DNA of 64,000 nucleotides from Escherichia phage vB_EcoM_VR7. The notes under the pieces were generated by a model that was given only the letters and a program-made list of their open reading frames with translations, had not been told where the DNA came from and made no database searches. Below are positions 43,816-47,882 of this stretch, piece after piece (within the stretch, counting starts at the first letter, position 1; every line of letters starts with the position of its first letter). A program made the translations under genes and the position numbers. The stretch is taken from the sequence record NC_014792.1; one strand, 5' to 3'.

Positions 43816-45099
43816 ATGACACAAACTACAGGTGAAAAAGAAGGCGTATTTTACGGTTATTCTCTTTATGATTTGAATAAAGAAAAACTAATAACTTTTG
43901 ATGAATTACTTACGGGTATTCAAGGAGAGCCCGGAGAAAATGGCGATATTGGACCAAAAGGTGACCAAGGCCCTGTGGGACCACAGGGTATTCAAGGGGA
44001 TACAGGTCTTCAAGGAGTTCCAGGAGAAAATGGTGCTATTGGACCAAAAGGTGACCAAGGCCCTGTGGGACCACAGGGTATTCAAGGGGATACAGGTCTT
44101 CAAGGAGTTCCAGGAGAAAATGGTGCTATTGGACCAAAAGGTGACCAAGGTATTCAAGGGGATACAGGTCTTCAAGGTATTCAGGGACCACAAGGACTAC
44201 AAGGAGACCCGGGAACGCAGGGTCCACAGGGTATTCAAGGTCTAAAAGGAGATAAAGGCGACCAAGGTATTCAAGGTGAAACAGGTGCTCAAGGTATTCA
44301 GGGTATTCAAGGAGTTCCGGGTGCCAAAGGAGATATAGGCCCAGTCGGTCCGGCAGGTTTAACATGGAAAGGTTCTTGGAATATTGCAACTGCTTACGCA
44401 GTTAACGAAGCCGTTGGACACGATGGAAGCCTATATTTCGCCACAGCTGAAAGCACCGGACAAACTCCTTCATTAGGTAGCGATTACTGGGAAGTCTTAG
44501 CAACGGAAGGGCCTGAAGGTCGGCAGGGCGTAGAAGGCGCGCAGGGTCCACAGGGTATTCAAGGTCCACAAGGTATTCAAGGACCTAAAGGTGATACGGG
44601 TGAAACTGGACTACAAGGTCTTAAAGGCGACAAAGGAGAGGCAGGTTTAACCGGACCACAAGGACTCCAAGGTATTCGTGGCGAACAAGGAGAAACGGGC
44701 GCACCGGGTATTCAAGGTATTCAGGGTATTGCTGGAGACCAAGGTCCTAAAGGTGACACGGGCGACAAAGGTGATACAGGTGCCACTGGTCCAGCCTACG
44801 AGTATAAAAAAGTATCTAGATTTACAATGCCTGCCGCTGGTATATCAAATTCTACTCCTTTATTCGATTCAGGATTAACAATAAGTATGTTAGGCGTCAA
44901 AGCTAATACATTTAGATTTACCCTTACTAATACAGGTTCAGCGTCTAGAGTTATTGATGGTGAAATAATTTATTTTGACCCGGACGGTACAGCAAAAAGA
45001 TTTGTTGTTCATTTTTCAATAGCTGCTGGTGAGACAACCAATTTTCGGTACGTACACGTATGCAATTACAACTCCCAGAGTTTTTACTTTAAATTTTAA
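43816..45099 (+). CDS. Collagen-like (Gly-X-Y repeat) protein with non-collagenous C-terminal domain
   Basis: 427 aa; GGAGGA RBS; long uninterrupted G-X-Y tracts in two blocks; ~100-aa C-terminal beta-rich domain. Confidence 0.8.
43933..44184 (+). repeat. Near-perfect 90-bp tandem DNA repeats (about 2.8 copies) inside the collagen-like gene
   Basis: Unit ggagaaaatggtgctattggaccaaaaggtgaccaaggccctgtgggaccacagggtattcaaggggatacaggtcttcaaggagttcca starts at 43933, 44023 and 44113; the third copy lacks 18 bp. Confidence 0.85.
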
Positions 45100-45226
45100 T
45101 GCTACTGGGACTACACAACACGCCCACGAAGTAAAATATTTTATAATAGGACGCGACGGTTATACGGAAAATACTTCTGTTGGTGCTACTGTTACTATTG
45201 AAAAACTCTATAACTAAGGACTACAA

Positions 45227-46045
45227 ATGGCTATTACATTAAGTCCATCTTCAATAGACGTAGAATACGGTGACTCTTATACAGTCACTGCTAATATTCC
45301 AGATATTAGCCCTGGTTCATCTATTGTGTATAACTGGACTAAGAATAAAAAATTTATTAGTTCCGGAACTAATGTATTCACTGAAATAGCATCATCGGTA
45401 GAAACATTCAGTATTGCGTGCCGAATTGAAATTATATCACCGGATAAAAACACTGAATATATTTTATCGGATTCTTGCTTGGTTAATGTTAGTAAAAACA
45501 CAAAAGCGGACGGTATAAATTCTCAGCTAGTTTATTCACCAGATGTTCATAAAATAGGTGACCAAGTTATTCTTTCTGTAGAATCCCATCATGTAGACCC
45601 TGGCTATATTAAAGGAGTTATTTGGAAAGATCCATCGGGTAATGTCGTGTCAATTGGTAAAGAATATACGCATAAGATTAAGACGACAGAAGATGTTGTA
45701 GATGTAAAAATAGATTTGGCTTCTGAAAATTATGCCTATTACAATAAAACACTTCAAATTGTTCTTAAAGCTGTTGAAGAAGATAATTCGGAGTGTAGTG
45801 TAAGATATATTCATCCTTTAGACCACAGGGATTCAGGATACATCTGGATGGGTTGGTGGGTTATGGACGAAATTGAAAGGGCGACGGTAGAAGGATTAAA
45901 TTGGAAAGCGCCGGACGGTACTGACCTGAAGTATAAGTGTGACTTGAAAACTCTTTCTATAATGCTTGACTTATATAATAATGTTGAAGTACAAGAATCA
46001 AGGAATGGTTATATTCTAAACAGGGCAGATTTACTTCCAAAATAA
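45227..46045 (+). CDS. Hoc-like paralog: Ig-like domain plus Hoc-type C-terminal capsid-binding domain
   Basis: 272 aa; C-terminus YIHPLDHRDSGYIWMGWWVMDEI...VEVQESRNGYILNRADL closely parallels the Hoc C-terminus encoded convergently at 46071-47174. Confidence 0.7.
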   Translation: MAITLSPSSIDVEYGDSYTVTANIPDISPGSSIVYNWTKNKKFISSGTNVFTEIASSVETFSIACRIEIISPDKNTEYILSDSCLVNVSKNTKADGINSQLVYSPDVHKIGDQVILSVESHHVDPGYIKGVIWKDPSGNVVSIGKEYTHKIKTTEDVVDVKIDLASENYAYYNKTLQIVLKAVEEDNSECSVRYIHPLDHRDSGYIWMGWWVMDEIERATVEGLNWKAPDGTDLKYKCDLKTLSIMLDLYNNVEVQESRNGYILNRADLLPK

Positions 46046-46066
46046 AAAAGGGCCGCAAGGCCCTTT
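46046..46066. terminator. Bidirectional terminator between the convergent hoc paralog and hoc
   Basis: GGGCC-gcaa-GGCCC with flanking A/T runs on both strands. Confidence 0.65.
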
Positions 46067-46070
46067 ATCA

Positions 46071-47174
46071 TTAATAGACGTAATCGTATATAATACCAGC
46101 TTCCAATGCCGAACGGTGGACGATACGACCGTTACGAGATTCCTGTACATCAACTTCCGGGTAATCACTAAGCATTTTGGCTAATACCGCCAGATGACAA
46201 TAATATGGTGTATCCTCTTTAGTGGCTTTTTTCCAATCTGTACTTTCAGATGTTAATTTCTGAATAGCGTCCATAACCCACCAGCCACACCAAATATACG
46301 CAGTATTACGGACAGGAAGTGGATGTACATAAATTAAAGGGCATTCTTCTGGAATAACAGGCTCTGCTTCTTCCACCGTAACAGACTTATTACCTGATTT
46401 AACTGAATTTGTAAAGCCTGTTTGCGATGCGGTAACTTCACAAGTATATGACTTCAAGCCTTCAGTGGATTCCGTTATTGCTCTTGTTGCTTCTGTTGAG
46501 TTGTCGTCCCATTTATATGCAAGAGTAGCACCAGGGATAGCAGGAGACACAGAAGCTGTCAAATTGAATGGAACATCAACCGTCGCAGTAGACGGGCCTG
46601 AAATCTCAACAGTGAACTCAGGAAATGTATTGTTTTCGACCGTAACAACTACTGCCTCAGGATTAATAACTTGATTGTCATAATCTGCAGCAGAAACGGT
46701 AATTTGACAAGTTAAAGAAACTGGTCCTGCGACAGTAGCAGTACGAGTAATATCTTTAGTAATTTCACCGGTAGACCACAAATATGCTATTGTAGCTCCA
46801 CCAGGTTCACCTGTTACGTCGGCCGAAGCGTTATATTCCTCGCCAACTTTAACGGTTGGAGTGGAAGTTGTTAATGTTGCAGTTGCAGACATAGTCTTGT
46901 TATTAACTGTAATAGTTGTTTGAGCCTCTGCCGTTTCAGGCTCTCCTTCTTCCGGCGTTGTGGTGGCAACAACTTTAATTACTTTTGAACCTGCTGGGCC
47001 AGCTGCAATATAATCCATAGTAGCAATAACAGAAGCTTGTGGAACATCATCAACGGTCCATACAAAAGATTCGGTACCAGCGACAGCGGCTCCAGCTCCA
47101 GTGGCAGTAAAATTAGTTGTTGCACCTATAACCGCTGTAGGTGTTAAAGGGGCAATTGATACAGTATAAGCCAT
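46071..47174 (-). CDS. hoc: Hoc (highly immunogenic outer capsid protein; Ig-like domains plus capsid-binding domain)
   Basis: ORF track 46071..47186 trimmed to the ATG at 47174 (GGAG RBS); collinear with remembered T4 Hoc, including KVVATTTPEEGEPETAEA and C-terminal YVHPLP...YIWCGWWVMD...YPEVDVQESRNG. Confidence 0.9.
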   Translation of the reverse strand: MAYTVSIAPLTPTAVIGATTNFTATGAGAAVAGTESFVWTVDDVPQASVIATMDYIAAGPAGSKVIKVVATTTPEEGEPETAEAQTTITVNNKTMSATATLTTSTPTVKVGEEYNASADVTGEPGGATIAYLWSTGEITKDITRTATVAGPVSLTCQITVSAADYDNQVINPEAVVVTVENNTFPEFTVEISGPSTATVDVPFNLTASVSPAIPGATLAYKWDDNSTEATRAITESTEGLKSYTCEVTASQTGFTNSVKSGNKSVTVEEAEPVIPEECPLIYVHPLPVRNTAYIWCGWWVMDAIQKLTSESTDWKKATKEDTPYYCHLAVLAKMLSDYPEVDVQESRNGRIVHRSALEAGIIYDYVY

Positions 47175-47201
47175 AAAAATCTCCAAAAGGCCATAGTGGC
47201 C

Positions 47202-47882
47202 TTAGTTTAAACGAATAAAAGATGAGTTACGTGTTTCACGAATAAGAATGGAACCGTCACGATTGATATAGTAAATCAAACTAAACAATGTTTGGTGTGC
47301 GCTTGCATGAGTAAAAGAAGTAGGGCGTTCTTTCCAGTCCGGGGTCTCTTTAATCCACTGGTAAATCCACCAAGGGAGAGTACAATATCCAGGAGCTTTG
47401 CCCAGCATAAGCAGATTGGGGCTAAAATTTTTAGGCAGTGTAAATTTAGGAGTTTCAGCTTCGATGATTTGAGCGACAGCTTCTTCAAAGTCTTCGGAAA
47501 CAAACGGCACTTCAATTTCAACGAGTTTAACTTCTGATTCAGGAACAACTGCCTGGGTAACTTCGACTACTTCAACGGGTGCTTCTGGAGCATCAAACAA
47601 AAGAACAGCTTCAGGTTTAGCTGATTCTTCACCTTCAAACTTACTACCTGATAATTCATCATCAGCATTAATAAGGTCGGTGATGCTTAAGCCTTCGTTA
47701 TCGTCCGGCATAGGCATGTCAGCAAATGCTTTAAGTCCTGCTTCCAGGTCAATCAACATATTATTGAAAGTTTTTGTTTTCTTAACATCAACACCAAGCG
47801 ATGATGCATATTCAGCTAATTTTTCTTTGGCTTCTTTTTTCTCGAGGACACGAATTTCCTCAATATAGTTCTTATCAATCAT
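47202..47882 (-). CDS. inh: Inh-like protein (prohead protease inhibitor family), with a Hoc-like C-terminal domain
   Basis: 226 aa at the T4 inh position between hoc and uvsW; C-terminus PWWIYQWIKETPDWK...RETRN resembles the Hoc capsid-binding domain. Confidence 0.65.
   Translation of the reverse strand: MIDKNYIEEIRVLEKKEAKEKLAEYASSLGVDVKKTKTFNNMLIDLEAGLKAFADMPMPDDNEGLSITDLINADDELSGSKFEGEESAKPEAVLLFDAPEAPVEVVEVTQAVVPESEVKLVEIEVPFVSEDFEEAVAQIIEAETPKFTLPKNFSPNLLMLGKAPGYCTLPWWIYQWIKETPDWKERPTSFTHASAHQTLFSLIYYINRDGSILIRETRNSSFIRLN

Follow-up and report, generated by a model that had tools for sequence, protein, structure and literature searches.

Does the hoc region of Escherichia phage vB_EcoM_VR7 encode more than one protein equipped to dock on the capsid, and how does a collagen-like gene come to lie beside it? 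The stretch analysed, referred to here as the window, is 64,000 nucleotides of sequence record NC_014792.1, in which an earlier note, made from the letters alone, had described four open reading frames (ORFs) as a collagen-like protein (43816–45099, +), a second Hoc-like protein (45227–46045, +), Hoc (46071–47174, −) and an Inh-like protein (47202–47882, −), and had proposed that the last three share the Hoc C-terminal domain. All four ORFs are present at these coordinates and on these strands. Taken jointly, our results make it probable that the hoc region consists of an inserted two-gene cassette together with three proteins (Hoc, the second Hoc, here called Hoc2, and Inh) sharing a single capsid-docking domain. 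Second Hoc genes are already known, in phages Muldoon and PG7, and the new element is the link between the Inh and Hoc domains.

The canonical hoc gene of the window (46071–47174, −) encodes a 367-amino-acid (aa) protein with three immunoglobulin (Ig)-like domains and the C-terminal domain (46074–46337); it belongs to PHROG 1149 and matches T4 Hoc (PDB 5VF3, 8T1X) with a phmmer E of 9e-79. Hoc2 (45227–46045, +; 272 aa) appears to have a pair of Ig-like domains, after which comes a capsid-binding domain at aa 192–272 (45800–46042, +). It matches PHROG 1149 (E 2e-57), PHROG 21694 and a hidden Markov model (HMM) of the Hoc C-domain (E 2e-47), and its C-terminus is homologous to T4 Hoc residues 281–376, such that it belongs to the Hoc family. 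The resemblance between the C-termini of Hoc2 and the resident Hoc that had been seen by eye is borne out by BLASTP, which gives an E of 1e-31 with 29% identity over 258 aa and is strongest in the last 80 aa. Residues 12–191 of Hoc2 align with Ig domains 2–3 of Hoc, and the Pfam Ig_2 match to this part is below the cut-off (E 0.0044).

The docking of this domain is well described in T4, where the Hoc C-domain has been solved on the gp23 hexamer and sits on gp23 G326–R344 (Fokine et al. 2023, PMC10385173; PDB 8T1X, 8T9R). The contacts are made by Y293, H295, H299, R300, Y304, W306, W309, W310, D313, Q354, the E355–G359 loop and Y360; the ESRNG loop is at the centre of the capsomer, and mutating it impairs capsid binding (PMC10385173). 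When the Hoc2 alignment is mapped to this published list, all 16 contact residues are identical (Y194, H196, H200, R201, Y205, W207, W210, W211, D214, Q256, E257–G261 and Y262), and the resident Hoc retains 14 of the 16. The receiving surface is also conserved, with the docking loop of the window gp23 (GAKAGVFDFQDPIDIRGAR) identical to that of T4 at 18 of 19 positions, D336 and R344 included.

The third protein had been taken as another decoration-like protein, and this needs correction, as it is a canonical Inh. The gene (47202–47882, −; 226 aa) lies between hoc and uvsW, its product matches PHROG 1051 over its full length (E 4e-88), and homologues that are 98% identical carry both of the Pfam families Phage_Inh_N (PF26097) and Phage_Inh_C (PF26098). 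It is ~60% identical to T6 Inh, and in comparison with T4 Inh it is a full-length family member with no difference in the protein. The Inh C-terminal domain (aa 146–226; 47205–47447, −) is homologous to the Hoc capsid-binding domain in profile, HMM and fold searches. Pairwise comparison does not reveal this, with BLASTP matches of Inh to Hoc and Hoc2 being non-significant (E 3.8 and 0.12 respectively), and neither does a shallow Inh profile (effective number of sequences, Neff, 1.4), for which the hhalign P is just 0.013. A deep Inh profile built from 93 diverse representatives of the Inh family, aligned by hhalign with a Hoc C-domain profile of 20 sequences, gives a probability of 95.2% and an E of 2.9e-8; the 58 aligned columns extend across the entire domain, and the score of 47.6 compares with a maximum of 19.0 among 200 column-shuffled Hoc alignments and 10.7 for the reversed alignment. 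Thus the relationship between the C-termini of Inh and Hoc that the earlier note had proposed is upheld by profiles, not by pairwise alignment, and the similarity holds across the C-terminal domains of Hoc, Hoc2 and Inh.

The HMM searches succeed in both directions. An Inh C-domain HMM run on the 643 ORFs of the window matches only Inh, Hoc (E 1.9e-5) and Hoc2 (E 8.4e-4); in the other direction, at a threshold of E < 0.01, an HMM built from Hoc sequences alone recovers 58 members of the 93-sequence Inh set, the strongest match having an E of 2.4e-10. Conservation within the Inh family is strongest in R-E-[ST]-R-N-S, a motif whose residues R215, E216, R218, N219 and S220 are near-invariant at a mean column identity of 19%, and this motif aligns with the ESRNG loop of Hoc. 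Pfam hits do not join the two proteins, Phage_Inh_C being a family of its own and the Hoc proteins having no C-domain family. Full-text searches of the open-access literature gave no report of a relationship between Inh and Hoc, and the paper on the Hoc structure (PMC10385173) does not mention Inh.

Structure prediction is consistent with the profiles. An AlphaFold model of Inh made with a diverse alignment has a predicted local distance difference test score (pLDDT) of ~97 over aa 150–226, with elements in the order strand-strand-helix-helix-strand-strand; a model from a shallow 28-sequence alignment (pLDDT 49, and ~30 in the C-domain) was discarded. The top Foldseek match of the Inh model in the PDB is the T4 Hoc chain 8t1x_X with a probability of 0.97, all others being at or below 0.06, and by two methods of fold searching the solved Hoc C-domain ranks first in the whole PDB. 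In BFVD, some 15 Hoc proteins rank straight after the Inh homologues. As modelled, the Inh C-domain shares the fold of the T4 Hoc C-domain: its elements run in the order seen in Hoc, and E-S/T-R-N is the best-conserved loop of both. We conclude that the two domains are paralogues of ancient origin, a relationship that holds in the T-even relatives recovered, including T6.

The phage is of the T-even type with VR5, VR25, VR26 and ESCO10 as its closest relatives (95–97% identical in parts of 43500–48000), and the locus lies between rnlB/24.2/24.3-like genes and uvsW. The two-gene cassette, composed of the collagen-like fibre gene and then the second hoc gene, sits between 24.3 and hoc and is convergent with hoc. 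It is found at the equivalent position in VR5, VR25, VR26, ESCO10, KIT01 and Kosakonia phage 305, and also in a single contig from a metagenome, and the collagen gene is directly 5′ of the Hoc2 gene in each of the six T-even phage genomes examined and in the contig. RefSeq names the genes of VR5 and VR26 (NC_028881, NC_028957) as ‘tail fiber protein’, ‘Hoc-like head decoration’, ‘Hoc-like head decoration (hoc)’ and ‘inh’ and refers in its notes to VR7 gp196 and gp197, so the gene content is not new, and by its sequence the locus is a further member of an arrangement that is already annotated. The set of genes and their order are alike in the window and in VR5, VR25 and VR26, with 95–100% identity in parts, whereas the window differs in carrying a frameshift and an additional 90-bp collagen repeat.

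There are also departures among the relatives that we note here. The locus in the window is a mosaic, with the collagen C-domain and Hoc2 being of the VR5/ESCO10 type (99–100%) and Inh of the VR26 type (98–100%); the N-terminal part of Inh is only 56–58% identical to those of VR5 and ESCO10. The metagenomic relative (ENA contig k123_278436, 5871–9462) also has the cassette; its Hoc is 960 aa long, and hoc and inh are separated by an additional gene of 185 aa.

The collagen-like gene (43816–45217, +) requires a change in its reading frame. As read it stops at 45099 to give the 427-aa protein previously described, and this is a frameshift product: the T-run at 45042–45045 is TTTT in the window and TTT in an alignment with VR5 and ESCO10. 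Removal of one T joins the frame to an ORF at 45029–45217, and the intact product is 466 aa; as in the relatives, nine bases then separate its end from the Hoc2 ATG. The last 141 aa of the repaired protein are 100% identical to VR5; the 427-aa version has a 17-aa out-of-frame tail and is missing ~56 aa. Because of the frameshift, the C-terminal domain on which the earlier note commented was read partly out of frame, although the statement that it differs from the Hoc domain stands, and we find it unrelated to that domain (by a search for the Hoc-type motif, and by the Inh C-domain HMM on the window ORFs). The extra T may be a homopolymer sequencing error or a genuine recent mutation. A programmed frameshift at this site was considered and rejected, since the extra T is absent from VR5 and ESCO10 and is thus not conserved. 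The context is AAU-UUU-CGG, a Phe codon followed by a rare Arg codon, where some +1 slippage is possible and would restore the VR5 frame.

The collagen-like protein matches Pfam Collagen (PF01391) with an E of 9e-42 (141 bits against a cut-off of 27.2), which establishes its membership, and its uninterrupted Gly-X-Y runs occupy aa 34–183 (50 triplets) and aa 232–327 (32 triplets). An N-terminal module of 35 aa (43816–43920, +) is invariant in the Escherichia coli phages; in Kosakonia 305 and in gp011 of the Cronobacter phage (Certrevirus) CR3 its identity is 56%. The first collagen segment contains a 90-bp tandem repeat (43911–44150, +; 2.7 copies with 95% matches, coding for 30-aa units) whose copy number varies, which accounts for the length differences between phages. 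Between the two segments is a non-collagen insert of ~50 aa (LTWKGSW...YWEVLATEG; 44359–44511, +) that is conserved in Kosakonia 305 and CR3 and is weakly CBM5/12-like. Its match to Pfam CBM_5_12 (PF02839) covers profile positions 2–43 of 44 with an E of 0.0048, and at 17.3 bits is below the cut-off of 26.2, so that the insert may be said to resemble the family and not to belong to it.

The C-terminal globular domain (44791–45217, +; about 135–141 aa after repair) is hypervariable and has no Hoc-type motif. It is 100% identical in VR5 and 85% identical in ESCO10, and a search of 50,697 phage records gave no relatives beyond these two; among 5.8 billion proteins there is a single fragment match, the PDB gives no sequence match, and Pfam returns only noise. 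In six phages there are four unrelated types of this domain, with 19–33% identity between types. In its sequence the protein is laid out like a trimeric fibre: a conserved N-terminal module precedes a collagen stalk of variable length, an insert and a hypervariable distal domain. A resemblance was also seen between aa 1–12 of the collagen-like protein (43816–43851) and the gp23 segment MTNTVGAKAGVF (~38459–38494), with 8 of 12 positions identical and the final seven (GAKAGVF) being the start of the Hoc-docking loop. We do not regard the N-terminus as a mimic of that loop, because among the window ORFs the BLAST match has an E of 0.32 and both Kosakonia 305 and CR3 lack the motif; the likeness is probably due to chance.

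The location of this fibre on the virion admits two readings. In the one that survives better, the protein is a tail, baseplate or neck fibre, acting as an accessory receptor-binding protein, and its place beside hoc is an accident of insertion. The protein matches PHROG 5073 ‘tail fiber protein’ (E 3e-118) and dozens of other collagen-bearing ‘tail fiber’ PHROGs, the RefSeq label is the same, and there is no Hoc-type anchor; moreover, receptor-binding fibres are usually built in this way, with a conserved N-terminus, a hypervariable C-domain and a carbohydrate-binding-like insert. We hold this to be a serious possibility that falls somewhat short of probable, as the tail-fibre labels derive from similarity alone and the gene is among head genes rather than tail-fibre genes, lying beside hoc in the T-even phages and in the interval between the major capsid and neck genes in CR3. 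A collagen-like capsid decoration also exists, in that gp12 of phage SPP1 is described as a collagen-like trimer bound at hexamer centres (PMC7602432). Both gp12 and the window protein are collagen-like phage proteins and gp12 is head-associated, although this is a likeness of description and no sequence relationship is claimed. Furthermore, gp12 is very short, unlike the window protein with its 466 aa, two collagen segments, CBM-like insert and large distal domain.

The alternative, which follows the idea of the earlier note that the collagen-like protein could be a fibre on the virion surface, is that the head displays it, with Hoc2 serving as an adaptor or the N-terminal module of the protein itself providing the attachment. 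In addition to the SPP1 precedent, the constant position of the collagen gene directly 5′ of Hoc2 (6 of 6 genomes and the contig) is in favour of this, as is the head-gene context in CR3. We nonetheless consider it unlikely. In VR26 and KIT01 the N-terminal part of Hoc2 is 95% identical and the collagen C-domain just 25%, for which reason a pairing of the collagen C-domain with the Ig domains of Hoc2 is rejected, and the N-terminal module is invariant across differing Hoc2 types; the lack of co-variation together with the invariant module argues against a specific fibre–Hoc2 partnership. In CR3 the homologous gene has no Hoc-domain protein nearby, and CR3-type phages have the fibre and no Hoc-domain protein. 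A trimer on a monomeric Hoc would be awkward in its stoichiometry, and the collagen gene is frameshifted in the window. On this analysis a head location is possible, and a tail or neck location appears at least as likely. We note that in CR3 (5637–7362) the fibre of the same architecture, gp011, is preceded by a 103-aa mini-collagen, gp010. Literature searches found no proteomic or binding data for the collagen-like protein, the proteome of Certrevirus CB7 covering a different collagen-domain protein, and gave nothing relevant on virion proteomics of VR7 or VR5 or on the collagen-like proteins of VR-type phages.

The second gene of the cassette does not appear to be a copy of the neighbouring hoc. 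The C-terminal core of Hoc2 is 49% identical to that of the adjacent Hoc and 71–77% identical to those of the canonical Hocs of Serratia phages 92A1 and X20 and Shigella phage SdyM_006, so Hoc2 is of another Hoc lineage and was acquired rather than duplicated in place. It shares with T4 Hoc a capsid-binding domain at the C-terminus, every contact residue and probably a string of Ig-like domains, and differs from it in apparently having two such domains rather than three, in lying on the opposite strand, in its lineage and in coexisting with a canonical Hoc. Short extra Hoc proteins have been described in Serratia phage Muldoon (314 aa) and Enterobacter phage PG7 (233 aa, as well as a 511-aa lipase fusion) (PMC10385173). 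As in the window, these are short proteins with one or two Ig domains and the Hoc capsid-binding domain that accompany a main Hoc and reuse the domain to functionalise the capsid, whereas here the extra Hoc is always accompanied by a collagen-like fibre gene. A tblastn search with the Hoc domain finds 1513 places in 1340 phage records, about 170 of them extra copies, and phages with more than one Hoc are thus not rare; the contig index has no match on record to the exact Hoc2 sequence of the window.

If Hoc2 assembles as its contacts predict, it would dock at the centre of the gp23 hexamer. T4 is described as having a single Hoc site per hexamer, in which case Hoc2 would compete for it with the three-Ig Hoc, and capsids would acquire a mixed coat of two types of fibre. 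That the phage displays two different Hoc-type decorations, as had been suggested before, is plausible from the intact contacts, the gp23 loop, Kosakonia 305 and the Muldoon and PG7 precedents. Another explanation is that Hoc2 is a duplicate, redundant or in decay, and that capsids are assembled without it, given that the resident Hoc could occupy all of the sites and that hoc is non-essential in T4. This we think quite improbable: in addition to its intact contact residues, Hoc2 is 98–100% conserved among the window, VR5 and ESCO10, its gene is equipped with a ribosome-binding site of its own, and the protein represents a separate lineage rather than a recent copy. Moreover, Kosakonia phage 305 has the collagen gene and a Hoc2-type gene (6428–8358) and no minus-strand hoc, with a ~360-bp gap at the hoc position, showing that a protein of the Hoc2 type can be the only Hoc.

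Several observations weigh against the joint reading of the locus as an inserted cassette beside three proteins with one docking domain. First, when 1.84 billion proteins were searched with a narrow Inh C-domain profile, 93 Inh-like proteins came back and none of the matches at E < 1e-3 was a Hoc, such that plain HMMER, if started from close T-even Inh sequences, leaves the two families unconnected, and the Foldseek E for 8t1x_X (0.13) is weak by itself. Second, only ~6 of 13 aligned Hoc contact positions are kept in Inh (WW, Y, E, R and N), and the Inh C-domain is basic (isoelectric point, pI, 9.7) where the Hoc C-domains have a pI of 5.2–5.9 and the remainder of Inh is acidic (pI 4.1); from the differing contacts and charge, the surface that Inh targets may differ from the outer Hoc site. 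Third, display of Hoc2 on the head is something that we infer, and the collagen gene is broken here, which may mean that its function is dispensable in this phage or, alternatively, that the extra T is a sequencing error. That the resemblance of Inh to Hoc reflects convergence or the compositional bias of a Trp-rich segment, for which the low identity (~16–21%) and non-significant pairwise BLAST might speak, is very hard to reconcile with shuffled and reversed controls at or below 19 against 47.6, reciprocal HMM matches as good as 2.4e-10, the two-method fold searches and the adjacency of inh and hoc, and we give it scarcely any credence.

What the Hoc-type domain would do in Inh is best considered from what is known of the protein. 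T4 Inh is an inhibitor of the prohead protease gp21 and an internal prohead protein, and with Inh inside the prohead the shared domain probably serves a different docking role there. We suggest that it would dock Inh onto gp23 capsomers in the prohead, and that targeting of Inh to gp23 capsomers during assembly is a more probable role for it than decoration of the mature head. Just before the domain (47447–47466 correspond to aa 139–145) there is a conserved [IV]-x-E motif at aa 139–141, with E141 invariant; the motif matches the gp21 cleavage consensus. A tentative and more detailed proposal, which we hold to be possible though less than probable, is that the R-E-[ST]-R-N-S loop docks Inh on the axial loops of the gp23 hexamer in the unexpanded prohead, possibly on the inside, placing the inhibitor at every capsomer; cleavage at aa 139–141 would then release it, and expansion would remodel the site for Hoc and Hoc2. 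Under this proposal hoc and inh would derive from an ancient tandem duplication, with the same module being used once inside and once outside the shell. Compared with the extra Hocs of Muldoon and PG7, Inh is a further and much older reuse of the Hoc domain, in this instance fused to a helical N-terminal domain.

Putative expression signals were found on both sides of the locus, each as a match to consensus. The late-promoter-like sequence AATAAATA at 43786–43793 (+) has one mismatch to the T4 sequence TATAAATA and is 22 nucleotides 5′ of the collagen-like ATG, with its surroundings conserved in VR5, VR26 and ESCO10, and a second copy of AATAAATA at 47915–47922 (−) is upstream of inh and hoc. 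The cassette would thus presumably be expressed late. A G+C-rich hairpin with A and T runs on either side (46047–46066) is located between the convergent Hoc2 and hoc genes and is read as a candidate bidirectional terminator. A perfect hairpin (AAGGCC-ATAGT-GGCCTT) is also present at 47187–47203, overlapping the inh stop codon and just upstream of the hoc ribosome-binding site, and might serve as an attenuator between inh and hoc, or as a site of RNA processing. Elsewhere in the window there are tandem gp24-like vertex-protein genes (39502–40782 and 40783–42066, +; 426 and 427 aa), which are named ‘capsid vertex protein I and II’ in VR5.

Phages with two Hocs are a counterpart in nature to the mixed display of Hoc on which T4 vaccine engineering builds, and if Hoc2 truly competes with Hoc for sites, then they show how phages mix capsid surface chemistries. 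The part of interest to T4 specialists is the homology of Inh and Hoc. Our literature searches found no structural or mechanistic work on Inh, and the finding that its C-domain is homologous to the Hoc anchor, whose structure has been characterised, provides a concrete hypothesis for how Inh may be targeted to capsomers, one that is directly testable in T4.

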